This document shows positions 8,462 to 59,987 of a stretch of DNA of 64,000 nucleotides, piece by piece. Under the pieces are notes generated by a model. It was not told where the DNA came from. It ran no database searches and saw only the letters and a list, made by a program, of their open reading frames with translations. Both the position numbers and the translations under genes were made by a program. Location of the stretch: positions 1,376,001 through 1,440,000 of the forward strand of contig JASGHJ010000001.1 in assembly GCA_047602405.1 (NCBI GenBank). The letters run 5' to 3'. Numbering within the stretch: the first letter of the stretch is position 1; each line of letters opens with the position of its first letter. Source of the DNA: Anaeromyxobacteraceae bacterium (lineage in GTDB: Bacteria > Myxococcota > Myxococcia > Myxococcales > Anaeromyxobacteraceae).

Positions 8462-8623
8462 GGTGGGCCCTGCCGGGCGGGAGGGGTCTAGCACGGCCCC
8501 CACCCGGAGTCACCGGGCGGCACCGGAGGGGCTCGGACGGGGCGGGTGCCAGCCCGGTGCCGGACACGGGGGCGGTGCCGGACATCGTTGCGCGGCGCGG
8601 CGTCGCGTGCCATGGAACCCCCC

Positions 8624-9073
8624 ATGCGCGCGGTGGTGCAGCGGGTTTCCCGGGGCGAGGTCCGGGTCGACGGCGCCGTGACCGGCTCGGTCGGGAAGGG
8701 GCTCGTGGTCCTCCTCGGGGTCGCGAAGGAGGACGGTGAGGCCGACGCCCGGGCGCTCGCCGACAAGGTCGCGGCGCTCCGCATCTTCGAGGACGCCGCC
8801 GGAAAGATGAACCTCGCGGTCGCCGAGGTGGGCGGCGGGGTGCTGGTGGTGTCGCAGTTCACGCTCCTCGGCGACGCCCGCAAGGGCAACCGCCCGAGCT
8901 TCATCGACGCCGCGCCGCCCGAGGCCGCGAACGCGCTCTACGAGACCTTCTGCGCGCTGCTCCGGGAGAAGGGGCTGCCGGTCGGCACCGGCGTCTTCCG
9001 CGCGCACATGGACGTCGAGCTCGTCAACGACGGGCCGGTGACCCTGCTCCTCGACTCCCGCAAGCTGTTTTGA
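8624..9073 (+). CDS. dtd: D-aminoacyl-tRNA deacylase
   Basis: MRAVVQRV start, LRIFED..GKMNL, SQFTL, KGNRPSF, NDGPVT. Confidence 0.96.
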
Positions 9074-9086
9074 CCCGAGGTGAACG

Positions 9087-9437
9087 ATGGCCGACTGCAT
9101 CTTCTGCAAGATCGTGGCGAAGCAGATCCCGGCGCGGGTGGTCCACGAGGACGACCACGTGATCGCCTTCGAGGACCTCAACCCCCAGGCGCCCACGCAC
9201 GTCCTCGTCATCCCGAAGAAGCACGTCGCGACGCTCGACGACGTCGCCCCCGAGGACGAGGCGCTCGTCGGGAAGCTCGTCCGGGCGGGCTCGGCCATCG
9301 TGAAGGCGCGCGGCCTCACCGGCCGCGGCTGGCGCGCGGTCATGAACGCGAACCAGGACGCCGGCCAGACCGTGTTCCACATCCACCTGCACGTCGTCGC
9401 CGGGCGCGCCATGGGCTGGCCCCCGTTCCCGGCGTGA
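9087..9437 (+). CDS. Histidine triad nucleotide-binding protein (HIT/HinT)
   Basis: DCIFCKI, DLNPQAPTHVLVIPKKH, GQTVFHIHLHV. Confidence 0.95.
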   Translation: MADCIFCKIVAKQIPARVVHEDDHVIAFEDLNPQAPTHVLVIPKKHVATLDDVAPEDEALVGKLVRAGSAIVKARGLTGRGWRAVMNANQDAGQTVFHIHLHVVAGRAMGWPPFPA

Positions 9438-9468
9438 CGGGCCAGCCCGGGGCGGCGGAGGCAAGGCC

Positions 9469-9999
9469 GTGACCGAGCTCGACGTCTCGGGCTGGGTCCC
9501 GTTCCCGCTCCCCGAGGTCCTCGCGTTCTTCTCGGACCCGCGGAACCTCCCCCGCATCATGCCCGCGGAGCTCGACGCGCGGATCGTCTCCATCTCCCGC
9601 GTGCCGCCGGCGCCGCCCGGCGATCCCGCCGCCGCCGGGCCCGGCACCGAGATCGCGCTCACGTTCCGGCCCGCGCCGCCCTTGCCGTTCCGCGCCCGCT
9701 GGCGCGCGCGCATCGTCGCCTTCGAGCCGGGCGTCGCGTTCGAGGACGAGCAGGCCGAGGGGCCGTTCGCCGCCTGGCGCCACCGGCACGAGTTCCGCGC
9801 CGAGCGGCGCACCGTCGAGGGCAGGGCGATCGACGGCACGGTCGTGCGCGACCTCGTGCGCTTCGAGGTGGGCTTTCGCCCGCTCGGCGCGCTCGCCGCG
9901 CGCCTCGTGGTGGGGCCGCGGATGCGGGCGGCGTTCCGGCACCGGCAGCGGGCGCTGCCGGGGCTGCTCGAGGCCGCGCGGCGGTTCAGCGCCCCGTGA
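9469..9999 (+). CDS. SRPBCC-family protein
   Basis: FFSDPRNLPRIMP, W.ARIVAFEP...FEDEQ.EGPFAAWRHRHEF, F.HRQ pattern. Confidence 0.75.
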   Translation: MTELDVSGWVPFPLPEVLAFFSDPRNLPRIMPAELDARIVSISRVPPAPPGDPAAAGPGTEIALTFRPAPPLPFRARWRARIVAFEPGVAFEDEQAEGPFAAWRHRHEFRAERRTVEGRAIDGTVVRDLVRFEVGFRPLGALAARLVVGPRMRAAFRHRQRALPGLLEAARRFSAP

Positions 10000-10432: not shown

Positions 10433-10510
10433 GCGGGGAGCGTGCGCCCGGGGTACGGGGGCGTCAACGGCCGCGATGACGCGGCCGACGCCCTCGACCT
10501 CCCGCGGTCC

Positions 10511-11933: not shown

Positions 11934-12141
11934 CGTGTGTGGACCTCGGCCGGTTGCCGGCAGGTGCGCCGCTGCACGGGCGGTGGAGCGATCGGACGGC
12001 CGGATGCTACCGCGATCGGGCCCCCGTACCGAGATCCCGGCACGGGCCCCCAGCCGGAGCGAGGGACGGCGTATGCTATCCACCCACACGTACTCCCCGG
12101 CACCCTTCACCCGAAGGGAAGGGGGCGGAAGGCCTCGAAAC

Positions 12142-13038: not shown

Positions 13039-13051
13039 ACTCGGCGGTCCC

Positions 13052-13405: not shown

Positions 13406-13415
13406 GAGGTCCCTC

Positions 13416-20494: not shown

Positions 20495-21502
20495 GTGCCG
20501 CGCGCCGCGGTGCTGCTCCCGGTGCGGGACGCCGCCCGCACGCTCCGGGCCGCCGCGGTCTCCATGCTCCGGCAGACGGAGCGCGACCTCGCGCTCGTCT
20601 GCGTCGACGACGGCTCGACCGACGCGACGCCCGCCGTGCTCGACCGGCTCGCGGCCCGCGACCGGCGGGTGCGGGTCGTGCGCGCGCCGGCGAACGAGGG
20701 CATCGCGCGGGCCCTCGCCCGCGGCCTCGCCGCGTGCGACGCCGAGGTCGTCGTGCGGATGGACGCCGACGACCTCGCCCACCCCGCGCGCGTCGCGACG
20801 CTCCTCGCCGCGCTCGACGCCGATCCCTCGCTCGCCGCGGTGGGGTCGCGGGTGCGGCTCTTCCCGCGCCGCGCCGTGAAGCCGGGCATGGCGCGGTACG
20901 CGGCGTGGCTGAACGGGCTCGTCACCCCGGCGCTCGTCGCCCGCGACCTCCTCGTCGAGGCGCCGCTCGTGCACCCGGCCTCCGCGATCCGGCGGGCCGA
21001 CCTCGAGCGGGTGGGCGGCTGGCGGGAGGGCGACTTCCCGGAGGACTACGACCTGTGGCTCCGGCTCGCGGCCTCGGGGCGCCGGCTCACGAACGTGCCG
21101 GACACGCTCCTCGCCTGGCGCGAGTCGGGCACCCGCCTCACCCGGACCGACCCGCGATATCGCCTGGAGCGCCACGTGGCGCTGAAGTGCGCGCACCTCG
21201 CGGGCGGGTGGCTCGCCGGGCGGACCGAGGTCGCCCTCTGGGGCGCGGGTGAGACCGGACGTGCGTTCGCGGGCGCGCTCGCGCCCCACGGCATCCGCCC
21301 GGCGCTGTTCGTGGACGTGGACCCCAGGAAGATCGGCCGCACGCGGCGCGGGGCGCCGGTGGTGGGGCTGGACGCGCTCGAGCGCGCCCGGGGGCTCCCG
21401 CTCCTCGTCGCCGTGGGCGCGCCCGGCGCGCGCGACCTGATCCGCGCCGAGCTCGCCCGGGCCCGGTTCGGCGAGGGATCGGACTTCCTCGTCGTGTCCT
21501 GA
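20495..21502 (+). CDS. Family 2 glycosyltransferase
   Basis: VDDGSTD, RMDADD, PEDYDLWLR, plus C-terminal Rossmann-like LWGAG.TG...VDVDP.KIG. Confidence 0.88.
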   Translation: MPRAAVLLPVRDAARTLRAAAVSMLRQTERDLALVCVDDGSTDATPAVLDRLAARDRRVRVVRAPANEGIARALARGLAACDAEVVVRMDADDLAHPARVATLLAALDADPSLAAVGSRVRLFPRRAVKPGMARYAAWLNGLVTPALVARDLLVEAPLVHPASAIRRADLERVGGWREGDFPEDYDLWLRLAASGRRLTNVPDTLLAWRESGTRLTRTDPRYRLERHVALKCAHLAGGWLAGRTEVALWGAGETGRAFAGALAPHGIRPALFVDVDPRKIGRTRRGAPVVGLDALERARGLPLLVAVGAPGARDLIRAELARARFGEGSDFLVVS

Positions 21503-26782: not shown

Positions 26783-27151
26783 TCAGCCCTGTTCGCCGGG
26801 GCCGCGCGCGCCGCCGCCGCCGGACAGCGCGAACAGCTCGGCGCGCGAGCGGACCCCGCACTTCGCGAAGATGCTGGCGATCTGGTTCGCGACGGTGCGG
26901 ACCGAGCGCCCGCGGCGGCGGGCGATGTCGGCGTTCGACAGCCCCTCGCGCACGAGCCCGAGCACCTCGCGCTCGGCCTCCGTGAGGCCGTCGGGCGTGG
27001 CGGGGGCGGCGGTCGGCCACTCGAGCAGCGCGACGTCCTCCTCGCCGGCGATCCTCCACGCCACGAGCCCGCGCGGGGCGGAGAGGCGGGCCGGTGAGGC
27101 GCTCCGCGACCTCGACGCCGACGGGGAGCGAGGACGGGAGAGGGAGCGCAT
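26783..27151 (-). CDS. Small LuxR-type HTH protein
   Basis: LTEAEREVLGLVREGLSNADIARRRGRSVRTVANQIASIFAKCGVRSRAEL. Start at 27151 or 27238. Confidence 0.8.
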   Translation of the reverse strand: MRSLSRPRSPSASRSRSASPARLSAPRGLVAWRIAGEEDVALLEWPTAAPATPDGLTEAEREVLGLVREGLSNADIARRRGRSVRTVANQIASIFAKCGVRSRAELFALSGGGGARGPGEQG

Positions 27152-27234
27152 GTCCGATCCGTAACCCCTCGCAGGGTCCGGATGCAACGTCGAGATTCTC
27201 TGCGCGGGTGGCTTCTCGGAAGGATCGAACGGGT

Positions 27235-28281
27235 TCATGTGGCGCTCCCGGGGTGGGGGCGGCCCCGGGCCCGCCCGGAGGCGGGCGAGCGGTTCGCAGG
27301 GGACGTGGCGGTACCGGACAGGAGGGAGATGAGCTCGCCGCGGGAGCGGACGCCCAGCTTCACGATGGCCCCCTTGAGGTGCGCCGCGATGGTCGCGCCG
27401 GAGAGCCCGAGCGCGTACGCGACGTACTTGTTCGAGTGCCCTTGCACGACGTAGGCGAGGACGTCCCGCTCGCGCGGGGTGAGCGCCTTCGGGTCGGCGG
27501 CGCCGGGCGCGTTGCGGCGGGCGAGCACGAGGCGGCGGCCGTCGGCCTCGACGTGATCGACGAGCGACCAGTTGCCCTCGACGAGGCCGCTCCAGAGGTC
27601 GACCGCGTCGTCCGGGTCCGCGCGGCGGAGCTGGCCGCGGGCCCGCTCGGTGCGCCGCACGGCGGCCGCGAGGCTCGCGCGCGCGGCGGCGGGGCGGGCC
27701 TCCCCCTCGGCGTGCAGCACGCGCCCGCCGGGGTCGAGCACGGCCTCGGGCGGCGCGTGCGCGAGCGCCCGCAGGCGCGCGGCGCTGCCGAGGTGGGCCG
27801 ACACGCGCGAGAGGCGGTGTCGGGCGCGGGGGCCGACGCGGACCGGGCGCGCCGAGTTGAGCCACACCTGCAGGGCGCGGCCGGCGGGATCGCGGGTGGT
27901 GACACCCAGGGCGTCGAGGGCGCCGCGGTCGGCGAACGGGCCGCGCACGGAAGAGAAGTCGGTGGTCGGGAGGCGCGCGATCCGGCGCTGGAAGGTGTCG
28001 ACCGTCGCGGGCGGGTGGAACCAGCGCTCCACGACCGCCTTGGGCGCCGCGCACCAGACCGCCGCGGCGGTCTCGATGTCGAGGGGCACCGGGCCTCGCG
28101 CGGCCTGGGCGACGGGGTGGACCACGCCGCCGCGCACGTCCCAGAGGATGGCGTAGACCCCGAATCCCTGCTCGAGCGGCTCGAACGCGCGGGCGATGCC
28201 GTCGAGCCACGCCGCGTTGTCCGGCACACCCGAGTAGCAGGCCTCGATGGCGAGGATGGGATCGAATCGGCGGAGGCTCAC
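27235..28281 (-). CDS. LuxR-family HTH transcriptional regulator (paralog 3)
   Basis: GTG 28281 (RRFDPILAIEACY). LWSGLVEGNWSLVDHVEADGRR and a LuxR HTH, homologous to the genes at 176-2169. Confidence 0.82.
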   Translation of the reverse strand: MSLRRFDPILAIEACYSGVPDNAAWLDGIARAFEPLEQGFGVYAILWDVRGGVVHPVAQAARGPVPLDIETAAAVWCAAPKAVVERWFHPPATVDTFQRRIARLPTTDFSSVRGPFADRGALDALGVTTRDPAGRALQVWLNSARPVRVGPRARHRLSRVSAHLGSAARLRALAHAPPEAVLDPGGRVLHAEGEARPAAARASLAAAVRRTERARGQLRRADPDDAVDLWSGLVEGNWSLVDHVEADGRRLVLARRNAPGAADPKALTPRERDVLAYVVQGHSNKYVAYALGLSGATIAAHLKGAIVKLGVRSRGELISLLSGTATSPANRSPASGRARGRPHPGSAT

Positions 28282-28664: not shown

Positions 28665-30164
28665 ATGTCATCCCTCCGCCTCGAGCGGGTCTCGTTCTCC
28701 TTTCACGACGCCGCGCCGATCCTCGACGGCGCCGACGTCGAGCTCGGCCCGGGCTTCACGGGCCTCGTCGGCCCGAACGGCGCCGGCAAGACCACCCTCC
28801 TGCGCCTGCTCGCCGGGGAGCTCGTGCCGGACACGGGCCGCGTGAGCGTCCGCCCCGCGGGCGCGCGCGCGGTGATGTGCCCGCAGGAGGTCGCCGTGTC
28901 CGGCACCGCGGTCGCGGCGCTGGTCCAGGCCTGGGCCGAGGGCGACCGGACCGCGCGGCGGCTCGCGGGGGTGCTCCGGCTCGACCCGCCGTCGGAGCCC
29001 GCGCGCTGGGCGACGCTCTCGCCCGGTGAGCGGAAGCGCTGGCAGCTCGCCGCGGCGCTGCTCGAGGCGCCCGGCGTGCTGCTCCTCGACGAGCCCACGA
29101 ATCACCTCGACGCCGGCGGGAAGGCCCTGCTCCTCGAGGCGCTCCGCGGCTTCGACGGCGCGGGCGTGGTCGTCTCGCACGACCGCGCGTTCCTCGAGGC
29201 GCTCACCGTCCGCACGCTCCGGCTCGAGCCGGGCGCGCTCAGGCTCCTCGAGCTCCCCTACGGTGAGGCGCGGGCGGTCTGGGAGGGTGAGGCGCAGGCG
29301 GCCCGGGACCGGCGGAGCGCCGCGCAGGACGGGGCGCGGCGCGCCGCGCGGAAGCTCGCCGACGCGCGCCGGGAGCGCGACGCGGCGGAGCGCGCGAAGA
29401 GCGGCGCGCGGCGCGACCCGAAGGACAGGGACGGCCGCACGCTCGGCGCGAAGACCCGGCGCGACTGGGCGGAGGCGCGGCTCGCCCGCGACGTCGCGGT
29501 CCGGCGCGGGCAGTCGGAGCGGGCGGCGGAGGCGGTGCCGGACGCGCCCGACGGGATCGACCTGGGCCGCTCCGTGTTCGTCGGCTACGAGCGGGCGCCC
29601 CGCGCGCGCGTGCTCGGGCTCGACGGCGAGGACGTGGTGGCGGGCGGGCGGGTGCTCGCGCGGGACGTCCGCGCCTGGGTCGGCCGCGAGGACCGGGTGC
29701 GCCTCGCCGGCCCGAACGGCGCCGGGAAGACGACGCTGCTCCGGGCGCTCCTCGCGAGGGCGCCGGTGCCGGACACGCGCCTCCTGTACCTGCCCCAGGA
29801 GCTCCCGCCCGGCGCGGGGGTGACGCTGCTCGGCGAGGTGCGCGGGCTCGCGCCGGACGTGCGCGGCCGGGTGCTCTCGCTCGTCGCGGCGCTCGGCACC
29901 GAGCCCGCGCGGCTCCTCGCGTCCGCGTCGCCCTCGCCCGGCGAGGCGCGCAAGCTCGCCCTCGCGCTCGGCCTCGGGCGGCACGCGTGGGCGCTCGTGC
30001 TCGACGAGCCGACGAACCACCTGGACCTGCCGACCGTGGAGCGCCTCGAGGCGGCGCTCGCGGCGTACCCGGGGGCGCTCGTGGTCGTCACGCACGACGA
30101 GGCCTTCGCCGGGAAGGTCACGGCGGCGACCTGGACGCTCGAGGAGGGGAGGTTGAGCCGCTGA
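28665..30164 (+). CDS. ABC-F family ATPase (two ABC domains, no TM segments)
   Basis: Two GPNGAGKTT Walker A motifs, two LDEPTNHLD, VSHD/VTHD, and a charged helical linker. Confidence 0.88.
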   Translation: MSSLRLERVSFSFHDAAPILDGADVELGPGFTGLVGPNGAGKTTLLRLLAGELVPDTGRVSVRPAGARAVMCPQEVAVSGTAVAALVQAWAEGDRTARRLAGVLRLDPPSEPARWATLSPGERKRWQLAAALLEAPGVLLLDEPTNHLDAGGKALLLEALRGFDGAGVVVSHDRAFLEALTVRTLRLEPGALRLLELPYGEARAVWEGEAQAARDRRSAAQDGARRAARKLADARRERDAAERAKSGARRDPKDRDGRTLGAKTRRDWAEARLARDVAVRRGQSERAAEAVPDAPDGIDLGRSVFVGYERAPRARVLGLDGEDVVAGGRVLARDVRAWVGREDRVRLAGPNGAGKTTLLRALLARAPVPDTRLLYLPQELPPGAGVTLLGEVRGLAPDVRGRVLSLVAALGTEPARLLASASPSPGEARKLALALGLGRHAWALVLDEPTNHLDLPTVERLEAALAAYPGALVVVTHDEAFAGKVTAATWTLEEGRLSR

Positions 30165-30596: not shown

Positions 30597-30654
30597 GGGT
30601 GCCGGACACGAGGTATCTGCCGGAAGTTACTGGGTTCGTGGGTGTCCGGCACCC
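30597..30654. repeat. Inverted pair of the 11-bp motif (13-bp arms, 32-bp loop), REP/REPIN-like
   Basis: GGGTGCCGGACAC (30597-30609) and GTGTCCGGCACCC (30642-30654). Confidence 0.85.
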
Positions 30655-32289: not shown

Positions 32290-32494
32290 CGGGGAGGAGT
32301 AGGAACGCCGACTGTAGAACGGAAGCCCGCGGCGCGCCACGGGTTGCCCCGGCGTCCGTGGCGCCAGCCGCGGCAGCCACGGCCGGGTGCCGGACACGAG
32401 GGGGCCGGTGCCGGACACACCCGAGGAGCCCCGTCCCGCCCGGTCCGGCCGCAAACGGGCGGAGCCCGCGGGAGCGGGGTAAGCTCGCCCCCGA

Positions 32495-39319: not shown

Positions 39320-40156
39320 CTAGAAGTCCTTCCGGTCGAAGAGGGCCACGGCGCCGGCGAGCGCGGCCCCGGCGAAGAGCAGCGCCCCCGCGACCTGCAC
39401 CGCGACCTGCCGGGCGTCGAGCGGCGCCGCGATCGCCACCTGCGCTGCGTGGCGGGCGAGCTCCGAGATGCGCGGCAGGGGCGACGTGAGGACCAGGAAG
39501 GCCGCCCGGGAGAGCCCCGGGGAGAAGAGCGGCGCGAGGGTGGCGCGCTGCCCGGCGACGATGCCGAGGACCAGCAGCGCGGCGCCGGCGCCCGCCGAGA
39601 GCGCCGCCGAGCGCGCGGCCATCGCGGCGAGGATCATGACCGCGTACACCGCCGTGAAGCCCACCGCCGAGAACGCGGCGGCGGCCACCGGGCCCCAGTC
39701 GAAGAACCCGGACTTCACCCAGATGATGAGCGAGAGCCCGAGGCCTCCGTAGAGCGCCCCGCCGAACACCAGCGTGAGGACGCCGAGGAAGGTGCCGGAC
39801 ACGAGCTCGGAGCGGCGGACCGGCAGGGACAGCAGGTGCTCGATCCGGCCGGGGGCGAGCAGCGTCGGCGCGAAGTCGGCGCAGGCCAGGACGCCGAAGA
39901 ACGCGCCGCCGTAGAAGACGACGTACGAGAGCCCCTCGAAGAGGGGCCGGAGCGCGACGTCCACGGAGCGGATCTCGTGGGTGTGCGGCCCGCCCGAGAG
40001 GAACCGCGAGGCCGCGAGCGCGCCGTCGACGACCTCGAGCTCGAGCCCGAAGCCGACCAGCAGGAGGAGCCCGGTGACCGCGACCCCGAGCGCGAGCACC
40101 CAGCGCCGGGCGCGGGCCTCCCGGAGGAGATCGCGGGCGACGGCGAGCGTCCTCAT
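39320..40156 (-). CDS. ABC-2 type transporter permease
   Basis: Six hydrophobic segments, GRIEHLLSLPVRRSEL..G.FLG, C-terminal F.RKDF. Confidence 0.85.
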   Translation of the reverse strand: MRTLAVARDLLREARARRWVLALGVAVTGLLLLVGFGLELEVVDGALAASRFLSGGPHTHEIRSVDVALRPLFEGLSYVVFYGGAFFGVLACADFAPTLLAPGRIEHLLSLPVRRSELVSGTFLGVLTLVFGGALYGGLGLSLIIWVKSGFFDWGPVAAAAFSAVGFTAVYAVMILAAMAARSAALSAGAGAALLVLGIVAGQRATLAPLFSPGLSRAAFLVLTSPLPRISELARHAAQVAIAAPLDARQVAVQVAGALLFAGAALAGAVALFDRKDF

Positions 40157-41088
40157 GCGGCCTTCCCTCCCGCTCCCGGCGGGCTCCCGGACGAGATCGC
40201 CGCCGCGAGCACGTCCTCGAGGTCGCGGGACTCCGCCGTGAGCTCGACCACGAGCGCCCCGGCGTCGCGGGCCTGGTCGAGCGCCAGGTTGAGCGCCTCG
40301 GGGCCCTCCCCGGCGAACCGGTGCGCACCCTGCGTGTCCGGCACGAAGCCGGCGGCCTCGAGCGCCGGCCCGGGGGCGCCCGGCGCGAACCGGACCCGCC
40401 AGGCCGGGCGGGTCGCGGTGAGCGCATCGAGCGGCCCCTCGCGGACGATGCGACCGCCCACGAGGATCCCGACGCGGCCGCAGATGCGCTCGGTCTCCGC
40501 GAGGAGGTGGCTGTTGAGGAGGAGGGTCGCGCCGCGCGCGAGGGCCCGGCCGAGGAGGTTGCGGACCTCGACCCGGCCGATGGGGTCGAGGCCGTCGGTC
40601 GGCTCGTCGAGCACGAGGAGCTCGGGGTCACCCACGAGCGCGGCGGCGAGCCCCACCCGCTGGCGCATGCCCTTCGAGAAGCCGCCGGTCCGCCGGCGGG
40701 CCGCCTCGGCCACCCCGACCTCCTCGAGGAGCCGGAGCGCACCCCCGGGCCCGAGCCGGACACCCTTCATGCGCGCGACGCTCTCCAGGATCTCGAGCGG
40801 GGTCCACGCGGGCGAGAGGCGGAGCCGCTCGGGCAGGTAGCCCACCCGCGCGCGGACCTTCGGGTCCTCGGGGTCCCCGCCCAGGAGCCGGACGGTGCCG
40901 GACGTGGGCCGGACCACCCCGAGGAGCGCCTTCACGAAGGTCGTCTTGCCGGCGCCGTTCGGACCGATCAGGCCGAACGCGGTGCCGCCGGGGATGGCGA
41001 GGTCGAGCCCGCGCAGGGCGTCCTGCCCGCCCCGCCCGAGCAGGCCGGCGTACCGCTTCGTCAGTCCCTGGGCCTCGATCGCCAGCAC
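40153..41088 (-). CDS. ABC transporter ATP-binding protein
   Basis: GPNGAGKTT, FSKGMRQR, LDEPTDGLDP, NSH. Start near GTG 41088. Confidence 0.9.
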   Translation of the reverse strand: MLAIEAQGLTKRYAGLLGRGGQDALRGLDLAIPGGTAFGLIGPNGAGKTTFVKALLGVVRPTSGTVRLLGGDPEDPKVRARVGYLPERLRLSPAWTPLEILESVARMKGVRLGPGGALRLLEEVGVAEAARRRTGGFSKGMRQRVGLAAALVGDPELLVLDEPTDGLDPIGRVEVRNLLGRALARGATLLLNSHLLAETERICGRVGILVGGRIVREGPLDALTATRPAWRVRFAPGAPGPALEAAGFVPDTQGAHRFAGEGPEALNLALDQARDAGALVVELTAESRDLEDVLAAAISSGSPPGAGGKAA

Positions 41089-43280: not shown

Positions 43281-44723
43281 CAATGCCGCTCACTTAAGCC
43301 CTCGGCGTTTCCGGGGGTAGTTGCTCATCTTGATCTTCACGGCCCTCGGGTAGGACCGCAGCCGTCGCTTCGGCAGGATGAAGTGCACGACGTCTTCCCG
43401 GAGGCGGCGGAGGTGCTCCGGGATGCGTCCCGCGCTCTCTAGGGAGAGCGTTAGGAGGGCGTGCTCGATGTACATGAGCGCGTTCTTGAAGCTGACGCGG
43501 TCGGGCGTGACGCCGGCGTCCTCGGCCATGCGCTCCATCTCGAGCCGGACGAGGTTGTACGCGAGGGCGAGGCCCCAGAGCTCCTGGGAGACGCCGCGAG
43601 GAGTCCTGCTGCGCGTCGTCTCCTCGCGGTCGAGCATGACAGTCTTGACCTCGTCGTAGCCGAGCTCGATCTCCCAGCGCTCGTGGTAGAGCGCGACGAT
43701 CTCGGCCGCCGGGTAAACCTCCGGGTCCGTCATCGACGTCAGCAGGGTCTGAGGCTTGAAGCCCTTCCGCTGATAGCGGATCGCCCGCATCTCCCAGCGC
43801 TCGGGGAGGTCAGGGTTCTCTCGGCGGGCGTCCCGGTGGACGGTCTTCTCGACGAGCCAGTCGCCGCGCCCGAGCGAGCGGACTACCTTCCAGGCCGTGT
43901 CGCTCTTCGCGCGGATGAGCCAGTGCCTTCGATGCCCGTGGCTCGCAATGCCGATGAGCAGCGCCGACGAGAGGAAGTTGCGATCCACGATGCACAGCGA
44001 CTCGTCCGGCACGAGCGGCCACAACTCCCTGGCGAGAGCGATCTCGCTGCCCGACTGTGGACCGAAGCGGGCCGCCGCCAGCAGGTGCGAGCGGAGGGCC
44101 ATCAGCGTGACGAGGCGTGCCATCGGATACGCGCTCTCGCCTCGGGAGCTCACGGCGTAGCCGAAATGATCGCGGTTCGCTTCGGAGTCCGGGAGACGGA
44201 CGGTCGTGCCGTCCACGCCGTAGACGGCGAGCCCGCGCCACGCGTGCCGGCGCGCACTCTCGTGCGCCCACTTTTCGGCGCTGCGTTCGAACAGCCAGCG
44301 GATGGGCTCGCTGCCCAGCCGCTCGCGCGCCTGGGTCACCGAACTCGAGGCCGCGCGCGGGCGCCGCCCCGGTAGCGCGAGATCGAGCTCCGCGACGATC
44401 TCGGCGATGGGCTTGTTACGGTAGATGCCCATCCCGAGCACGAGCCAGACGACCTGCTCGGCTGGAAGGCGGCGCCGGCGGATGGTGGCCGTCCCGGTGG
44501 CCTGAAGGGCTTCCTCGATCCATTCGGGATCGAGGCTCGCCTGGAACCTATCCAGCAACTCGCCCGAGCTGTCCTCTTGGGCGGAAACGGGGCGACGCGG
44601 CATGGGATCGCCCTCCGGGCGATCGCCGCATCATGATCTCCTGGATCGCCGCGGCAACTCTGCTGCCCCGGCCTCCAAAATCCCCATCGGTCTCGATCGG
44701 TTGGCGCTAACCGATCGGCATTG
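43281..44723 (-). mobile_element. Complete IS4-family insertion sequence (1443 bp)
   Basis: Imperfect terminal IRs CAATGCCGCTCACTTA / CAATGCCGATCGGTTA. 10-bp direct repeat CGCCTAGGTC at 43271-43280 and 44724-44733. Confidence 0.93.
43290..44603 (-). CDS. IS4-family DDE transposase
   Basis: IRRRRLPAEQVVWLV N-terminal domain, VDGT, DRNF, and the YREK motif LYHERWEIELGYDEVK. Confidence 0.94.
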   Translation of the reverse strand: MPRRPVSAQEDSSGELLDRFQASLDPEWIEEALQATGTATIRRRRLPAEQVVWLVLGMGIYRNKPIAEIVAELDLALPGRRPRAASSSVTQARERLGSEPIRWLFERSAEKWAHESARRHAWRGLAVYGVDGTTVRLPDSEANRDHFGYAVSSRGESAYPMARLVTLMALRSHLLAAARFGPQSGSEIALARELWPLVPDESLCIVDRNFLSSALLIGIASHGHRRHWLIRAKSDTAWKVVRSLGRGDWLVEKTVHRDARRENPDLPERWEMRAIRYQRKGFKPQTLLTSMTDPEVYPAAEIVALYHERWEIELGYDEVKTVMLDREETTRSRTPRGVSQELWGLALAYNLVRLEMERMAEDAGVTPDRVSFKNALMYIEHALLTLSLESAGRIPEHLRRLREDVVHFILPKRRLRSYPRAVKIKMSNYPRKRRGLK

Positions 44724-44869
44724 CGCCTAGGTCCGCGCCGCGGACCTCACGTCCGCCGCGCGGACCCCTGGCCCATCCCCCGGTCGTGTCCGGCACCGAT
44801 GGAAGCACTGGGAGAGAAGGGGCTCGCGCCGGGCGCGCCCCTGGCCCGGACCTTGCTCTACCCCGCCCC

Positions 44870-45547
44870 ATGCCTCGCATGGCGCGCCGCCAGCTCGTGA
44901 CGAAGGGTTCGATCAACCACGCGGTGTGGCAGACCCACAACCTCGAGGCCTTCTTCGACGCGCCCGGCGCCCGCCAGAAGTTCTACGAGCTCCTCCTGAA
45001 GTACAAGGCCGAGCACCGGGTCCGGATCCACTCCTACGTCTTGATGGGCACGCACCCTCACGTCGTCTGCCTGAGCGAGAAGGGCCAGGAGGACTTCTCC
45101 ATGTTCTGGAAGAAGGTCAACCAGGCCTTCGCGAAGTGGTTCAACAAGCAGACGAAGCGGCGCGGACAGGTCGTGATGGAGCGGCTCGAATCCCCGCGCA
45201 TCCAGGACGAGCGCCACGCGCTCGCCGTCATGCGCTACGTCGACAGGAATCCGGTGCAGGCGAAGCTCGTGAAGACGCCCAAGGACTGGAGGTACTCCAG
45301 CCACCGGCACTACGCGTACGGGGAGGCCGACCCGCTCGTCGACGACGCGCCCGCGTACCTCGCGCTCGGCGATCACCCGCTGAAGCGGCGCAGGGCATAC
45401 CTCCACCTCTTCGCGGAGCCGCTCGAGGTGAAGGAGGAAGCTGCCGACGCCGCCTACGTGAAGAAGCCGTTCATCGGCGAGAAGGAATGGGCGGAGCGGA
45501 TGAAGAAGGCCGCGGCCGCGGCGCGCGCGGCGCCCCGACCACCCTGA
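44870..45547 (+). CDS. REP-associated tyrosine transposase (RAYT/TnpA-REP, HUH Y1 family)
   Basis: MPRMAR start, YVLMGTHPHVV (HuH), MRYVDRNPV.A.LV..P.DWRYSS (catalytic Tyr and NP/WSS motif). Confidence 0.88.
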   Translation: MPRMARRQLVTKGSINHAVWQTHNLEAFFDAPGARQKFYELLLKYKAEHRVRIHSYVLMGTHPHVVCLSEKGQEDFSMFWKKVNQAFAKWFNKQTKRRGQVVMERLESPRIQDERHALAVMRYVDRNPVQAKLVKTPKDWRYSSHRHYAYGEADPLVDDAPAYLALGDHPLKRRRAYLHLFAEPLEVKEEAADAAYVKKPFIGEKEWAERMKKAAAAARAAPRPP

Positions 45548-45600: not shown

Positions 45601-46119
45601 GTGTCGCTCTACGTGGTCGACGTCGAGGCGGACGGGCCCATCCCGGGCAAGTACTCCATGGTGTGCTTCGGCGCCGTGCTCGTCGAGCCCGGCCTGGGCC
45701 GCACCTTCTACGGGACGACGCGCCCGATCTCGGACGCGTGGCTGCCCGAGGCGCTCGCGATCTCGGGCATCACGCGGGAGCAGCACCTGACCCACGACGA
45801 GCCCGGCGAGACCATGGCCGCGTTCGCGAAGTGGATCGCGGAGACCACGCGCGGCAAGCCCGTCTTCTTCTCGGACAACCTCGCGTTCGATTGGCAGTAC
45901 GTGAACTGGTACTTCCACACGTACCTCTCCGTGAACCCGTTCGGCTGGAGCGGCAGGCGCATCGGCGATCTCTACTGCGGCATGGTGAAGGACGCCTACG
46001 CGCCGTGGAAGCACCTGCGGAGGTCGGCGCACGATCACCATCCGGTGAACGACGCGCGCGGCAACGCGGAGGCGCTGCTCGCGCTCGTCGACATGGGCCT
46101 GAAGCTGCAGATCCGCTGA
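45601..46119 (+). CDS. DEDD-type 3'-5' exoribonuclease domain protein
   Basis: VVDVEADGPIPG.YSM, DNLAFDWQYVNWYF, HDHHPVNDARGNAEA. Start at 45601 or 45553. Confidence 0.8.
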   Translation: MSLYVVDVEADGPIPGKYSMVCFGAVLVEPGLGRTFYGTTRPISDAWLPEALAISGITREQHLTHDEPGETMAAFAKWIAETTRGKPVFFSDNLAFDWQYVNWYFHTYLSVNPFGWSGRRIGDLYCGMVKDAYAPWKHLRRSAHDHHPVNDARGNAEALLALVDMGLKLQIR

Positions 46120-46125: not shown

Positions 46126-46752
46126 GTGCTCGCGCTCCTCTCGCAGGGGGCCCTCCTCGGGCTCTCGTCGTCCGCCCAGCCGGGCCCGTTCCAGGGCTAC
46201 CTCGTCGCGCGCTCGCTGCACGCCGGCTTCCGGCGAAGCTGGCCCATCGCGATCGTGCCGCTCCTCTCGGATCCTCCGGTGATCGCCGTCCTGCTCCTCG
46301 TCCTCCAGCGGGTGCCGGACACGCTCCTCACCTGGCTCGGGGCGGCCGGGGGCGTCGTCGTGATCTGGCTGGGCGTGGGCGCGCTCCGGCAGGCCCTGCG
46401 CGTGTCCGGCACCCCGCCGGTGTCCGGTACCCCGGGTTCTCCTGGCGAGGAGCCGCGCGGGCTCGTGCGGGCGACGCTCGTGAACCTCACGAACCCGAAC
46501 GCGTGGATGTTCTGGAGCCTCTTGGGGGGCCCGACGCTCACGTCCGCGTGGCGGCGCTCGCCGCTCGAGGCGGTCGCGTTCCTCGCCGGCTTCTACGCGT
46601 GCCTCGTGGGCGGGAACGTGCTCCTCGTGGCGCTCGCGGGTCGCGCCGCGGCGGCCGGCCCTCGCCTCGCCCGCACCCTCGGTCTCGCCTCGGGGGCCGG
46701 GCTCCTCGCCTTCGGCCTCTGGCAGCTCGGCCGAGCCCTGGCGCGCGCCTGA
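46126..46752 (+). CDS. LysE-family translocator
   Basis: G...G.S...QPGP, NLTNPNAWMFW, six hydrophobic segments. Confidence 0.85.
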   Translation: MLALLSQGALLGLSSSAQPGPFQGYLVARSLHAGFRRSWPIAIVPLLSDPPVIAVLLLVLQRVPDTLLTWLGAAGGVVVIWLGVGALRQALRVSGTPPVSGTPGSPGEEPRGLVRATLVNLTNPNAWMFWSLLGGPTLTSAWRRSPLEAVAFLAGFYACLVGGNVLLVALAGRAAAAGPRLARTLGLASGAGLLAFGLWQLGRALARA

Positions 46753-51381: not shown

Positions 51382-52311
51382 ATGCCACAGGTGCCGGACA
51401 CGAACCTCCCACAGGTGCCGGACACGCGCCTCCGCGGGAAAGTCGCCGTGGTGACCGGGGCTTCCCGGGGTGCCGGACGAGGCGTCGCGATCGAGCTGGG
51501 CGCGGCGGGCGCGACCGTCTACGTCACCGGCCGCACCACGCGCGGGGCGTCGCCGCCCTCGGGCTACGCCCGGATCGTCGAGCTCTCGAAGCTCCCGGCC
51601 ATGCCCGGCAACATCGAGGACACCGCCGAGGAGGTCACCCGCGCCGGCGGCCGGGGCATTCCGGTGAAGGTCGACCACACCCGGGACGAAGAGGTCCGCG
51701 CCCTCTTCGAGCGGCTCGACCGCGACGAGGGCCGCCTCGACCTCCTCGTGAACAACGCCTGGGGCGGGCACGAGGCCTTCGACGGCCGCTTCGAGGCGCC
51801 GTTCTGGGAGCACGACCTCGCGCAGTGGGACGCGATGCTCGACCGCGGCGTCCGCAACCACCTCCTCGCCTCCCGCCACGCCGCGCCGCGGATGGTGCGT
51901 GCCGGACACGGCCTGATCGTCACGACCACCTTCTGGGACCGGGGCCGGTACCTGCGCGGCATGCTGGCGTACGACCTCGCGAAGGCCGCGATGACCCGCC
52001 TCGCGTTCGGCATGGCCGAGGAGCTGCGGCCCCACGGCGTCGCCTCCGTCGCGGTCTCCCCGGGCTGGATGCGCACCGAGCTCGTGCTCGCCGGCCACCA
52101 CGCCACCGAGGCCACCTGGCGGGAGCGCCCGGAGCTCGCGTCGACCGAGTCGCCGCGCTACCTCGGCCGCGCGGTCGCCGCGCTCGCGGCCGACCCCGAC
52201 GTGCTCCGCGCCTCGGGCGAGGTCCTCCGCGTCGCCGACCTCGCGGAGCGCTACGGCTTCACCGACGTCGACGGCCGCCGGCCGAAGGCGTTCGAGCTGC
52301 CGGAGCGGTGA
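51382..52311 (+). CDS. SDR-family oxidoreductase
   Basis: VTGASRGAGRG, LVNNA, YDLAK (YxxxK), SPGWMRTE. Confidence 0.9.
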   Translation: MPQVPDTNLPQVPDTRLRGKVAVVTGASRGAGRGVAIELGAAGATVYVTGRTTRGASPPSGYARIVELSKLPAMPGNIEDTAEEVTRAGGRGIPVKVDHTRDEEVRALFERLDRDEGRLDLLVNNAWGGHEAFDGRFEAPFWEHDLAQWDAMLDRGVRNHLLASRHAAPRMVRAGHGLIVTTTFWDRGRYLRGMLAYDLAKAAMTRLAFGMAEELRPHGVASVAVSPGWMRTELVLAGHHATEATWRERPELASTESPRYLGRAVAALAADPDVLRASGEVLRVADLAERYGFTDVDGRRPKAFELPER

Positions 52312-53940: not shown

Positions 53941-53997
53941 CCTACGTCGGCCTCCGCCGGCGTGCCTCCCCCGCGCCGGCCCGCGCCGCCGGACGCC

Positions 53998-55124: not shown

Positions 55125-56595
55125 ATGCCCCTCGCACCGTCGCTCCTCGCCGCCCTGGCCCTCTCGGCGGGCGTGTCCGGCACCGCTTCCCCCGTGTCCG
55201 GCACGGCTTCCCGCGTGTCCGGCACCGCCGGTCCCCCCGTGTCCGGCACCCCGGCCTCCGCGCCCGCCCACCCGGACGCCGTCGACCGGCTCCTCGCGGA
55301 GGCCATGGCCCGGGCCCACGTGCCCGGCGCGGCCGTCGCGGTGGTCCGGGGCGGCAAGGTCGTGAAGCTCGGGGTCTACGGCCTCGCCGACCTCGAGCAC
55401 GGGGTGAAGGTGACCCCGGCCTCCGCCTTCCAGATCGCCTCCACGACGAAGCTCCTGACCGGCGTGCTCCTCGCCCGGTTCGTCGAGCAGGGGAAGCTCT
55501 CGCTCGACGACCCGCTCTCGAAGCACCTCGACGCGGTGCCGGACACCTGGCGCGCCGTCACGCTGCGGCAGCTCGCCACCCACACCTCCGGGCTCCCGCC
55601 CACCGCGCCGGACCCGAGGCTCGGCCCGGTGCCGGAGGCCGCCCGCGCCGCGCTCGCCGCGACGCCCGCGGCGCGGCCGGGCGAGCGCGCGGAGTACGGC
55701 TCGCTCGACTTCACCGTGCTCGCGGCGGTCCTCGAGAAGGCCGGCGGGAAGCCGTTCCCGCGCCTGCTCGAGGACGAGGTCCTGCGCCCCGCCGGCATGC
55801 GCGACGCGCGGTTCGAGGCCGCCCGCGACGAGGGGCTCGTCCGCAGCGCCGACGTGGTGCCGGGCCGGGTCACCACCTACCGCTTCGGCGGCGGCGCCCA
55901 GCGCGTCGCCTGGTTCCTCTACCCCGAGTACACGTGGGCGGCCGGCGGGCTCTTCGCGTCGGTCCGCGATTCTCGCGGCCTTCGTCGCGGCCCTGCAGCG
56001 CGGGGCGCTCGTCTCGCGCGAGGCGCTCGACCGGATGGCGGAGCCCCCGACGCTCGCCGACGGCCGGCCCGGCGCCTTCGGTGCGGGTTGCACCGTGGGC
56101 CGCCACCGCGGCTTCAGGACCCTCGGCCACAGCGGCGGCCCCGCGCTCGCCGACGTCCTCCTCTTCCCCGAGCTCGACCTCGGGGTGGTCGTGCTCACCA
56201 ACCAGAAGCTCCTCCAGCCCGAGCTCGCCGAGCTCGTCGCCGACCTCTACCTCCCCGCCGACCGGCGCCCGCCGCCCGGGCCCGCGCCGGCCGACGCGGC
56301 GCCGGAGGCCACCGCCCGCGTGCGCGCCGTGCTCGAGGGTATGGCGCGCGGCGCCGTCGACCCGGCGCTGCTCGCGCCGGGGCACCGCGAGGACGCGCCC
56401 GTGCTCTCGGAATGGGGCCCGGTCGGCGTCGGCCTGTGGGGCCCGCTCACCGGCATCGCGCTCGCGGAGGAGCGGCGGGAGGGGAGCCGCTGGACGCGCT
56501 GGTACCGGGTGAGCTTCGGGGCACGGACGCAGCGGATCCGCGCGACGCACGCGCCCGGCGGTGAGGTGGAGGAGTTCGAGCGGGAGCCGGAGTAG
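55125..56595 (+). pseudogene. Serine hydrolase (beta-lactamase/PBP-like), frameshifted as assembled at about 55970
   Basis: FQIASTTK (SxxK), LATHTSG, GHSGG. Removing one T from GATTCTCGCG gives DLAAFVAALQ, which joins ORF 56035-56595. Confidence 0.82.
55173..55249 (+). repeat. Four tandem copies of GTGTCCGGCAC (periods 21, 21, 24 bp) encoding VSGT repeats
   Basis: Copies at 55173, 55194, 55215, 55239. Translation VSGTASP VSGTASR VSGTAGPP VSGTP. Confidence 0.92.
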
Positions 56596-56695
56596 GGCGA
56601 CCGCCTGCGGTGTCCGCCCGCGGGCGGGCGTTCATTTGTCGCACCCCGCCCGGCGCCGGCCCCGGCTACACTGCGCGCGAAGTCGGGAGGGGATC

Positions 56696-57313
56696 ATGAC
56701 ACATCGGGCGGCGATGGTCCTCGCGCTCGCGCTGGCGCTCCAGGCGTCGTCGGCGCGCGCCCAGGAGCGCCTCACCCAGGGGCGGCGCACCTGGTACGCG
56801 GGCGTGGGCCTCGGCGCCGGCGGCGGCGGCCTCCGCATCGGCGACCGGGATCGCTCGTTCGAGGACGTCCTCGGCCGGTCGGCCCCCATCGCCGCGGTGG
56901 CGATCCGGTTCGGCAGCGCGCTGTCGGACGAGCTCATGGTCGGCTTCGAGGGCAGCGCCGTCGGCGCGGTGGCGTCGAAGCCCTCCGAGCAGGTGCAGCT
57001 CAACCGCTACGACCTCGGCGTCACCTGGCTGCCGCGCGTGGACGGTCCGTTCCTCCGCGTGGCCGCCGGCCGCACGGTGGTCGGGGTGAAGAGCGACGGG
57101 CCGGAGCTCTACGGCAGCGGGACGTACGGTGGCTGGAACGCCGCGCTGGGAGGCGGGTGGTCGCAGCCGCTCTTCGGCTCGGGCCTCCACGCCGTGCTGC
57201 ACGTCGCCTACGAGGTCCACACCGTCGCGAAGGCCGGGCTGGTCGACGTGACCTCGGGGCGCGGCTGGTCCGCCACGCTCGGCCTCGACTGGTACGGGAG
57301 GAGCAGCCCATGA
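56696..57313 (+). CDS. Probable small outer-membrane beta-barrel protein
   Basis: Signal peptide ending SSARA, alternating beta strands, C-terminal LGLDWY. Confidence 0.65.
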   Translation: MTHRAAMVLALALALQASSARAQERLTQGRRTWYAGVGLGAGGGGLRIGDRDRSFEDVLGRSAPIAAVAIRFGSALSDELMVGFEGSAVGAVASKPSEQVQLNRYDLGVTWLPRVDGPFLRVAAGRTVVGVKSDGPELYGSGTYGGWNAALGGGWSQPLFGSGLHAVLHVAYEVHTVAKAGLVDVTSGRGWSATLGLDWYGRSSP

Positions 57314-58629
57314 CACGCCTGACCTTCACCGCCGTCGTCGCCGCGCTCCCGCTCGCGCTCGTCTGCGGCTGCTCCACGGACGCGAGCGGCCTCGGCTGCC
57401 CGCCCGGGACGTTCGCGTCGGGAGGCCGGTGCGTCTCGAGCTACACCTGCGGCGCCGGCACGCACGAGGAGGGCGGCGCCTGCGTGGCCGACGCGGGGGC
57501 CACCTGCGGCGCGGGCACGCACGCGGAGGGGTTCGTCTGCGTGCCCGACGAGCCGGACGTCGTCACCTGCGGCGCGGGCACGTACCTCGGCCCGGGCAAC
57601 GCCTGCCTGCCGTACAACCCGACGACGCCGGTGACCTGCGGGGCGGGCACCCACCTCTCCGGCACCACCTGCGTCGCGGACACGCAGATCACCTGCGGTC
57701 CGGGCACTCACCTCGACGCCGGCGTCTGCTACCCGAACCCCCCCGCCTCCTGCGGCCCGGGCACCCACCTCTCGGGCGCGCAGTGCGTGCCGGACGCCGT
57801 CCTGAGCTGCGGCGCGGGCACCCACCTCGACGTGGACCGGTGCGTCGCGGACGCCACGACGACCTTCGAGCTCCGCGTGGCCGGCACCTCCCTCACGGCG
57901 GACGGGTACTCGAAGTTCCCGGTCCTGGTGCTCGGCCGGAACGCCGACGGTACGCCCTCGAACGCGGACGTCATCCTCTGGTCGTCGCGCCCCGGCTCGG
58001 GGACGTTCACGCCGTCGCTGTTCGCGCTCGGCCCCTTCGGCAGGACCGTCTCGTTCGTGCCGTGCAGCGCGGCCTCCCAGGGGTGCACGGGGCCCACCGA
58101 GTTCCTCCTCGCGCTCGCGAGCGCGCCCGACGTGGTCGTCGCGAAGGTCGGCCCGGTGCAGCTCACCGCGCCCGCGGGGGTCGGGAGCGCGGCGCCGTGC
58201 CTGCTCGGGGGGAACGCGCTCTACTTCGACGGGAGCGGCTACATCTTCACGGGCACCCAGACCGTCACCGACGGCGCGTGGTCGACGCCCAACTCCAGCG
58301 CGAGCGCGGTGCGGCTCTGGCTCACCCCCTCCCAGCGCAGCCAGGGCCTGTGGTGGGATCTCGAGTTCTCGTCCACGCAGCTCGGGCAGCCGCTCGCGGC
58401 GCAGGTCTACGAGGGGGCCGAGCGGGCGCCGTTCGCCTCCCCGGGCCACCCGGGCATCGACATCGGCGGCGACGGCCGCGGATGCAACACGATCTCCGGG
58501 CGCTTCCAGATCCACGAGCTCGCCTGGGCGGGGACCGCGCTCTCCCGCTTCACCGCGAGCTTCGAGCAGTTCTGCGAGCAGGCCCCGACGAACGTGCTCC
58601 GCGGCTGCGTGCACTACGAGGCGCCGTAG
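57310..58629 (+). CDS. Cys-rich repeat lipoprotein
   Basis: Lipobox-like LVCG-C, about 8 repeats of CG(A/P)GTH...C(V), C-terminal GDGRGCNT..GRF.I.E...FTASFEQ.CE domain. Confidence 0.78.
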   Translation: MTRLTFTAVVAALPLALVCGCSTDASGLGCPPGTFASGGRCVSSYTCGAGTHEEGGACVADAGATCGAGTHAEGFVCVPDEPDVVTCGAGTYLGPGNACLPYNPTTPVTCGAGTHLSGTTCVADTQITCGPGTHLDAGVCYPNPPASCGPGTHLSGAQCVPDAVLSCGAGTHLDVDRCVADATTTFELRVAGTSLTADGYSKFPVLVLGRNADGTPSNADVILWSSRPGSGTFTPSLFALGPFGRTVSFVPCSAASQGCTGPTEFLLALASAPDVVVAKVGPVQLTAPAGVGSAAPCLLGGNALYFDGSGYIFTGTQTVTDGAWSTPNSSASAVRLWLTPSQRSQGLWWDLEFSSTQLGQPLAAQVYEGAERAPFASPGHPGIDIGGDGRGCNTISGRFQIHELAWAGTALSRFTASFEQFCEQAPTNVLRGCVHYEAP

Positions 58630-58647
58630 CCGGGGCGGCCGCCGCGC

Positions 58648-59715
58648 TCACATCCGCACGAGCCAGGCCGTGAGGCCGGCGGCCACGGCGAGGAGCGCGC
58701 CCACCGCGAGCTTCAGGGCGGGGCTGGGCAGGCTCGGCTGCGGGAACTCGACGGAGGTGCGCGGCCCATGGGCCGCGTCGGCGAACGCCGTCGAGGCGAG
58801 CGTGGAGAGCTCGATGCGCGTGAGCGCGAGCGCCTCGGTGACGAAGCCGCGGTGGGTGAGCATGGCCACGAGGCGCGCGCGGGCGTGCAGGCCCCGGGGC
58901 AGCATCCGGCGCGCCTGCCGGTCGAGCGCCTCCGCGAGCGCGGCCGCGCTCTGCCAGCGCCGCGCCGGGTTCTTCGCGAGGCAGCGCTCGACGATGCGGG
59001 CGAGCCGCCACGGGCAGTCCTTCGCGAGCGCGCGGACGCGGCGGTGGCGGCCCTTGCGGATGGCGGTGAAGAGCTCCTGCGCGGTCTTCCCGGAGAACGG
59101 CTTCTCACCGGTGAGGAGCTCGTAGAGCGAGACGCCGAGGGCCCACACCTCCGAGGCGGGGGAGCCGGGCGCGCCCTCGAGGACCTCGGGCGCCATGTAC
59201 GAGGGGCTGCCGACGAGCATGCCGTCGCTCGTCAGCGCGTGATCGCTCTCGGCCTTCGCGATGCCGAAGTCCATGAGCTTCACCTCGCCGAGCCGGGAGA
59301 CCATCACGTTCGCCGGCTTCACGTCGCGGTGGAGCAGCTTCTCGAAGTGCACGTAGTCGAGCGCCTCGGCGACGCGCGCGCCGATCACCGCGGCGCAGTC
59401 CGGCGGCAGCGCGCCGCCCTCGGCGAGGATCCTCGCGAGGTCGGCGCCGTCGACGTAGTCGGTGACGAGGAACAGCCCGTCGTCCTTCTCGACGAGGTCG
59501 TGCACCGCGACGATCGCCTCGTGCCGCAGGCGCGCGTACGCCTTCCCCTCGCGGCGGAAGCGCTCGAGCACCTCCGCGTGCTTCACGAGCTTCGGGTCGA
59601 GCGCCTTCACCGCGACCGGCCGGTCGAGGGCCTCCTGCACGGCCTCGTAGACCACGCCCATGCCGCCGCGGCCGATCTCGCGGACGATGCGGGCGGTTCC
59701 GACCTTGCGGATCAT
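58648..59715 (-). CDS. Hanks-type Ser/Thr protein kinase
   Basis: IGRGGMGVVY, VAVK, HRDVKPAN, DFG, YMAPE, C-terminal TM segment. Confidence 0.93.
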   Translation of the reverse strand: MIRKVGTARIVREIGRGGMGVVYEAVQEALDRPVAVKALDPKLVKHAEVLERFRREGKAYARLRHEAIVAVHDLVEKDDGLFLVTDYVDGADLARILAEGGALPPDCAAVIGARVAEALDYVHFEKLLHRDVKPANVMVSRLGEVKLMDFGIAKAESDHALTSDGMLVGSPSYMAPEVLEGAPGSPASEVWALGVSLYELLTGEKPFSGKTAQELFTAIRKGRHRRVRALAKDCPWRLARIVERCLAKNPARRWQSAAALAEALDRQARRMLPRGLHARARLVAMLTHRGFVTEALALTRIELSTLASTAFADAAHGPRTSVEFPQPSLPSPALKLAVGALLAVAAGLTAWLVRM

Positions 59716-59987
59716 CAAGCGAGAGCGTGCACCGGGCGGCCGCCGGGCCGCAAGGCGCACAACCTGCGCGCGCAAGGGGTGCGCCCGGCGTCCCGTGCGC
59801 GCCCGCACCCGCCCCTTGACCGGATGTACGGGACGCGCCGCGTCGACGGTGCCGGACACGCGCGGGATCGCACGCCGGGCCTGCGACGATCTGGTACCAT
59901 CCGGGCCCCTTCGCAGTGGCGAACCCCACTGCGCTCCTCGCCAGGCGCCCCCGCCGGCGGCGGAGCGCACGGTCGAGGAGAAGACGG

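Follow-up and report, generated by a model that had tools for sequence, protein, structure and literature searches.

A RAYT-like HUH transposase gene at the density peak of an 11-bp word iterated around the replication origin of an Anaeromyxobacteraceae genome

RAYT-type enzymes share the HUH chemistry of 5'-phosphotyrosine nicking and single-strand transfer (PMC8266576), and the way in which they spread their repeats is described there as unresolved. The TIRYT enzymes of TIRtrons (PMC3733652) have been equated with subclass 2.1 of the TnpA-Y1 transposases, for which the accessible text of the classification reports no identified REPs (PMC6006769). Here we analyse a stretch of 64,000 nucleotides (the window) from an Anaeromyxobacteraceae bacterium (contig JASGHJ010000001.1, positions 1,376,001 to 1,440,000), in which an 11-bp word is iterated around a RAYT-like gene; the genome is coded G000 and its relatives G010, G012, G020 and so on. 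The gene (window 44879-45547), previously unannotated and overlooked in the initial annotation of this DNA, lies at the centre of copy density and encodes P0001, a protein of 222 aa from the start at 44879 or of 225 aa from an ATG further upstream at 44870. By sequence and fold, P0001 is assigned to class 2 of the TnpA-Y1 transposases (the RAYT/TnpA-REP superfamily): it has the HUH motif (H59-P60-H61) and the catalytic tyrosine (Y120-V-D-R-N-P) of that class, with H59, H61 and N124 invariant and Y120 nearly so among 60 homologs, and E. coli TnpA-REP (4er8) is both its only sequence match and its top Foldseek match. The match to NF047646 (E 2e-18, 66.6 bits) falls under the cut-off of 80, and the weak match to the Y1_Tnp profile is likewise under its cut-off.

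With TIRtrons (PMC3733652, PMC6006769), the system shares a Y1 HUH transposase with Y---NP and SS motifs, the lack of GTAG hairpins, terminal words that in some genomes make up repeat families of moderate abundance, and, at related loci though not in G000 or G010, an inverted arrangement of these words around the gene. It differs in that the ends read GGTGCCGG(A/G) and GGTGCCGG-NNNN, whereas TIRtrons mostly, though not always, carry GGGGWSAS; in having THPH in place of NH[VYF]H; in the absence from P0001 of any Bac_DnaA_C, HTH_23 or HTH_28 match (Pfam, E 0.1), the C-terminal helix-turn-helix (HTH) domains of TIRYTs; and in having an 11-13-bp word with unrelated flanks instead of a long terminal inverted repeat (TIR). 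No HTH protein appears among the fold matches listed for P0001. A distance gradient, in-register coding gains and letter-perfect retention, all found here, do not figure in the accessible TIRtron accounts (PMC3733652, PMC6006769); the megabase reach, the coding-level maintenance and the origin-side skew are added here. Since the protein fails on GGGGWSAS and on the HTH domain and this copy has lost its ends, we regard it as working like a TIRtron without filing it as a typical member. A literature search found no description of the word in Anaeromyxobacter, with the 2013 TIR figure (Figure 9, PMC3733652) outside its scope; neither 'Anaeromyxobacter' nor the core occurs in the searchable text of the supplements of PMC3733652 and PMC6006769, whose image, eps and doc files could hold them.

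The REP/REPIN-RAYT systems (PMC8266576, PMC5581495) resemble this one in combining a single-copy, vertically kept HUH enzyme of the same fold (E. coli TnpA-REP) with many cognate repeats. A cognate single-copy RAYT lies nearby here too, P0001 being the sole member of its subfamily in G000. Unlike REPs, the word has no GTAG tag and no 20-50-nt hairpin, and it is not genome-wide. A hairpin is excluded by the C/C flanks, which cannot pair in 76 of 103 copies; a longer hidden element was rejected as well, because 41-mers around the word show no excess of folding energy (-8.1 versus -7.7, standard deviation 3.1, for random sequence) and their flanks are unrelated, with identity equal to random. The word also favours divergent gaps and coding DNA, whereas REPs are extragenic and mainly downstream or convergent: 20 of 127 divergent gaps carry it as opposed to 1 of 60 convergent ones (length-weighted P=0.002 and 0.01), the reverse of the REP-like repeat of G000 itself (52 convergent versus 11 divergent gaps). 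The likeness to REP elements first proposed for the word thus fails on both the hairpin and the intergenic preference. The REP-like repeat of G000 starts with CCCGAGCGTAG, continues into a GC hairpin and occurs in 176 copies, 38-fold over an order-5 Markov expectation, mostly in convergent gaps.

Within the window we count 31 exact copies of the word, 14 as GTGTCCGGCAC and 17 as GTGCCGGACAC, where 100 dinucleotide shuffles give a mean of 0.09 and a maximum of 1, which bears out both the count and the expectation of about 0.1 in the initial annotation. The preferred form is a 13-mer, CGTGTCCGGCACC, found in 21 of the 31. By our own gene calls, 14 copies are coding and 17 non-coding, a split that depends on start codons and missed genes and that departs from the 19 coding and 12 intergenic copies given earlier; the reported absence of the word from prfC, the aro genes, hflX, proBA, nifJ and the IS4 transposase agrees with the gene table. 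Loss of the enrichment under a codon-preserving null had been named beforehand as a possible refutation, and the enrichment persists: the 14 coding copies compare with a mean of 2.57 and a maximum of 7 in 100 synonymous-codon shuffles.

The whole genome holds 144 copies in 6.16 Mb (122 on contig C1 and 22 on the 3.76 Mb of C2), against 6.7 expected from an order-5 Markov model and 4 copies of the reversed word, so that the proposed rate of one copy per 2 kb applies inside the window and not elsewhere. As many as 103 copies lie within 0.95 Mb of C1 around the replication origin, a domain whose borders (0.55-1.5 Mb) were picked after inspection of the data, and 26 are spread over 4.56 Mb of distant DNA. 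We call the domain origin-side because it contains dnaA (1.062 Mb) and sites that we take to be of parS type (1.055-1.058 Mb), whereas a KOPS polarity switch, presumably the terminus, lies at ~1.7 Mb on C2. Coding copies make up 47 of the 103 in the domain, where synonymous shuffling predicts 8.9, and 16 on C2, where it predicts 6.9. Genome-wide, 71 of 78 coding copies are in a frame that reads VSGT (38) or VPDT (33), and all 20 VPDT peptides of the domain are encoded by the word. Polarity of the Chi or KOPS kind was rejected, with 59 leading and 59 lagging copies, as was a Ter/matS signal: the word is absent from the C2 terminus, and MatP was not found. Five copies at C2:2313421-2315364 show a 276-bp-based spacing in what appears to be a protein repeat; because the same spacing occurs in G015 and G035, they count as background.

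Copy density peaks on the RAYT gene. A 50-kb segment centred on this gene has 34 copies; no such segment of the genome has more, and 8 of 6058 have as many. Density is ~80 per 100 kb within 20 kb of the gene, and at 50-400 kb it is ~10 on the origin side and 0-3 on the terminus side. In G010 the density likewise peaks on the RAYT ortholog, which has an identical position. The dN/dS ratio (non-synonymous to synonymous divergence) of the gene between G000 and G010 is 0.153, like that of the median gene, and the RAYT of this lineage is under purifying selection. Its dS to G010 is 0.37, twice the median of 0.18, and its GC content is 67% compared with 75% locally. Ten further RAYT-like genes in G000, all distant from P0001, were considered as sources of the word and rejected, as none has it among its top local words.

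The distribution among relatives connects the word to the enzyme family. Homologs of P0001 were found in nine of 36 congeners, including all three that are rich in the word, namely G010 (178 copies), G012 (43) and G020 (57); the others have 1-14. In other words, three of nine congeners with the enzyme are word-rich as opposed to none of the 27 in which it was not found, none of which exceeds 13 copies, although these 27 include incomplete genomes and kin are not independent. Scattered copies, 36 in 9.4 Mb, also occur in G048, a member of another family. In G020, 42 of the 57 copies lie at most 7 kb from RAYT homologs, and in G012, 32 of the 43 at most 30 kb; these copies form irregular stutter arrays, and the orthologs of the window region hold 1 (G020) and 0 (G012) copies per 20 kb. 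Other homologs have sister words, NNNN-CCGGCACC, each with its own 4-base variant on the shared core: GACT- in G015 and G007, TCCT- in G021, GTGC- in G001, ATGC- in G026, and ACGT- or TCGT- in metagenome loci. Most copies of the GACT- form, GACTCCGGCACC, are at most 10 kb from a RAYT (26 of 31 in G015, 11 of 14 in G007); the sister word of G021 is less confined (64 copies, many scattered). At RAYT loci L059/L158 (G047:C58), L055 (G040:C6) and L053 (G039:C18) arrays of CAGCGACTCGTCGAGTC, CGAGAGTCCCG and CCCCAATCCCC stand beside the gene, and at metagenome loci L166, L170 and L178 the word flanks the RAYT on both sides in both orientations, possibly as independent halos like that of G000.

At 45 RAYT loci (at least 46% identity) CCGGCAC occurs 302 times where 69 are expected, and at 33 more distant loci 60 times where 33 are expected; some of these loci, and of the 29 that have enough flank for scoring the end layout, are duplicates. 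A contig scan with P0001 as sole query gave two loci. Among the 29, an inward-facing GGTGCCGG lies ~50-280 bp upstream of the RAYT in 22 and ~220-380 bp downstream in 16, with both ends in 15. In these related elements the gene is bracketed by inverted GGTGCCGG-NNNN ends. Neither canonical inverted end was found in G000, and the upstream match in G010 falls in a neighbouring gene. On a quick tree of proteins covering at least 150 residues at 34% identity or more, the core words CCGGCAC, CCGTCAC and CCGTCTG follow the protein clades, CCGTCAC marking one well-supported clade and CCGTCTG a deeper group. The residues at protein positions 101 and 137 differ from one core clade to the next, which is a lead, the tree having just two core changes. 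We hold with high confidence that the word belongs to this enzyme family as its terminal sequence. In the G000/G010 lineage the end layout has been lost, the gene has stayed at a fixed place and the word has spread. The congeners form a series from inverted ends through local stutter arrays to a megabase halo inside core genes.

Comparison of G000 with G010 indicates how individual copies behave. The word is retained at 31 of 33 coding sites, compared with 77 of 186 (41%) for the flanks, and at 32 of 42 non-coding sites, compared with 69 of 238 (29%); its retention is the best among 608 frequent coding 11-mers (median 0.54). The word can override protein preference, as where Ser replaces a residue that is hydrophobic in all nine outgroups. 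The suggestion of a signal that acts at the DNA level and is spread or selected therefore stands, as the enrichment survives codon-preserving nulls, retention is the best of its class and amino-acid preference is overridden. Non-coding differences between the two genomes consist of tandem units of ~17-27 bp. Private coding copies number 12 in G010 and 2 in G000, where control words average 0.91 (33,916 words) and two of them, the word itself included, reach 12. G010 has no IS4 at its RAYT; it is a speculative thought that the IS4 element 155 bp upstream of the gene may have silenced it in G000.

Of nine G010-only sites examined, the four that outgroups polarise wholly or in part are all gains; in one of them ATGT became VSGT through two non-synonymous substitutions within the four bases next to a core that was already there. 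For 17 coding sites G021, G015 or G023 provides an ortholog; 13 of them align gap-free and four lie in inserted linkers. At eight VPDT sites, identity to outgroups ranges from 0.17 to 0.58 in the first four bases and from 0.71 to 0.94 in the core; five VSGT sites show this pattern more weakly. The coding copies compared with outgroups occupy variable positions, and a part of the core is often present there beforehand. One coding site is common to G023, probably through ordinary conservation.

On balance, and from sequence comparison, we lean towards the view that P0001, acting mostly in cis, writes and maintains the copies of the word around its own gene. The enzyme would bind the word or its CCGGCAC core, nick one strand through a 5'-phosphotyrosine and rejoin it to a nearby strand that bears the word. 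Such transfers could yield 17-27-bp stutter duplications at existing copies, of the kind seen in intergenic gaps and linkers, and short in-register patches that would complete near-matches to the full word and mend decayed copies, as suggested by the coding pattern. The single strand might come from negatively supercoiled DNA on the promoter side, and the skew towards the origin might reflect the reach of a cis-acting protein in the folded chromosome. In a more tentative version, possible but rather doubtful, the domesticated HUH transposase would be an in-place editor of host DNA that converts near-matches, in genes as well as promoters, to the 13-bp end word and repairs decayed ones, leaving a halo that maps, and may help organise, an origin macrodomain.

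Several observations weigh against a writer acting in cis, starting with the fact that its activity on the word is a prediction, on which four sequencing runs with relatives ~90% alike, in the form of contigs, do not bear. At more than 200 kb from the gene, 9 of 11 coding sites are perfectly retained, a long reach for a cis-acting enzyme, and the origin-side skew (28 versus 8 collapsed sites, P=0.001) is not predicted by a model of distance only; a rearrangement at C1 1.47 Mb was rejected as its cause, synteny with G010 and G021 being continuous there. One-mismatch variants of the word are only ~2-fold enriched, and the absence of an IS608-type strand bias (59 versus 59 by replication strand; 38 VSGT versus 33 VPDT) counts against an IS608-like route. 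Because the 12 G010-only coding copies differ from their counterparts by one base (five cases), two (four), three (two) or five (one), patching is not separated from point mutation followed by selection; five of the nine sites examined are not polarisable, the outgroups being distant (~45-80% amino-acid identity). Six of the nine enzyme-bearing congeners are not rich in the word, several homolog loci lack any word, and the G000/G010 protein forms a long branch by itself and is not the sister of the G012 and G020 proteins that share the word.

The main rival is a reading in which the immobilised RAYT reads the word instead of writing it, as a domesticated DNA-binding protein that regulates genes or organises the origin domain while selection keeps sites arising by point mutation. 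The promoter-side preference, retention that stays near-perfect over several hundred kb, an origin-centred shoulder of ~+/-400 kb, the many gains by single substitution and purifying selection on the gene all agree with it, and three observations, the bias towards promoters, the retention at long range and the skew to the origin side, fit site selection at least as well as they fit a writer; the data do not separate the two. A binding protein sits less easily with copies throughout unrelated coding sequences that force non-conservative changes, with a sharp peak on the gene and stutter arrays beside homologs that resemble by-products of local activity, with the retention of catalytic residues and the lack of an HTH domain by Pfam, or with a trait limited to a two-genome lineage, and we consider this reading unlikely while giving it real weight. 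The organiser might instead be a separate protein, with the RAYT as bystander or historical source. The sites of ram/RacA and matS/MatP are non-polar and confined to one chromosomal domain, and the word likewise forms non-polar sites in one domain. The ricS sites of RicO are non-polar and concentrated in a domain of several hundred kb near the origin (bioRxiv 10.64898/2026.03.06.710092). The 103 copies that span dnaA and parS without strand polarity, and the same origin-side domain in G010, would suit such a protein, yet the peak lies on a transposase gene 360 kb from dnaA instead of oriC, the word is one of a family of mobile-element ends, in G012 and G020 it lies beside RAYT genes and away from the origin arm, and origin-arm DNA of relatives is nearly devoid of it (no copy in 800 kb of G021, without its left origin arm, and G015; two in 400 kb of G023). 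With MatP not found (RacA and RicO were not searched for) and no organiser protein identified here, we regard this as improbable.

HIP1 and uptake sequences are genome-wide and roughly even, with a cognate methyltransferase or uptake receptor. The initial annotation likened the word to them, and as a short exact word, abundant inside genes with a preferred reading frame, arising by substitution, conserved beyond codon needs and containing CCGG, it could pass for a signature of this kind tied to methylation or transformation. The likeness does not extend to its distribution, which is regional, centred on one gene, sparse on C2 and restricted to one lineage and 4 of 37 genomes of the genus; nor does G000 or G010 have a match to a C5 methyltransferase (PF00145), N4/N6 enzymes and receptors not having been searched for. 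A genome-wide HIP1-like word is thus largely ruled out by distribution, and we rate this reading as very improbable. The lowest probability, close to none, goes to an artefact of composition or codon use in a genome of 75% GC: ~7-16 copies are background and the coding copies of C2 are just ~2-fold above the shuffle, but for the domain the Markov and synonymous-shuffle nulls rule it out, as the reversed word also indicates.

Table 1. Coordinates of the word copies and associated features in the window.
Feature	Position	Strand	Remark
Word copies, n=31, preferred 13-mer CGTGTCCGGCACC	8557..59859	both orientations	densest part of the 144-copy halo
RAYT/TIRYT-type HUH Y1 transposase P0001 (predicted)	44879..45547	+	THPH, YVDRNP and WRYSS intact; density peak
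Word copy 83 bp upstream of RAYT start	44786..44796	+	orientation opposite to the family's canonical left end; degenerate in G010
IS4-family element, 10-bp target duplication	43281..44723	-	155 bp upstream of RAYT; absent from G010; no word inside
Four tandem copies (stutter array), spacing 21, 21, 24 bp	55173..55249	+	
Two tandem copies 21 bp apart, divergent intergenic gap	32387..32418	-	
Two tandem copies 24 bp apart, 5' end of SDR (short-chain dehydrogenase/reductase) gene	51391..51425	-	one extra 24-bp unit in G010
Two opposite-orientation copies, divergent gap	30599..30652	.	
Coding copy VPDT, glycosyltransferase	21095..21105	-	in register with, yet absent from, 28/28 outgroup orthologs
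Coding copy VSGT, gene 39320-40156	39792..39802	-	Ser versus Val, Leu or Ala in 9/9 outgroups
Coding copy VPDT, ABC ATPase	40334..40344	+	length unchanged versus 8/10 outgroups
Two coding copies, LysE gene	46312..46412	.	46312: VPAG to VPDT in register; 46402: VSGT in inserted linker
Three coding copies, ABC-F ATPase gene	28824..29776	.	in register with the sole outgroup found

The window also carries four LuxR/GerE-domain genes in two tandem pairs (176-2169 and 26783-28281) and, directly 3' of the RAYT, a gene for an Rv2179c-like 3'-5' exonuclease (45601-46119). Elsewhere in G000, another Y1 transposase of ~296 aa is present in four copies (C1:2221343, C2:3257163, C2:2523911 and C2:581805), and because these are 99% identical, recent transposition is suggested. 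Arrays of TCCGTCTCCGA with 12-bp-based spacing occur at C2:3741343-3741757, C2:7300-7493 and C1:2166861-2166895, the largest inside a called open reading frame and at a distance of 14 kb from a RAYT-like gene (C2:3726575). That gene, at C2 3.727 Mb, has a local word beside it, with 15 of 27 copies there.

The system has implications for how the repeats of such enzymes are considered. Because it combines one enzyme with one 11-13-bp word and natural variants of both the four bases and the core, specificity, cleavage and the choice between drive and selection are directly testable. Some iterated words that have been flagged as HIP1-like or as origin-domain signals may be transposase footprints, recognisable by a Y1 gene where their density peaks. 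Should in-place editing prove true, it would lead directly from a transposon end to a chromosomal signature of the HIP1 or matS kind, and the enzyme would be a natural short-patch genome editor.

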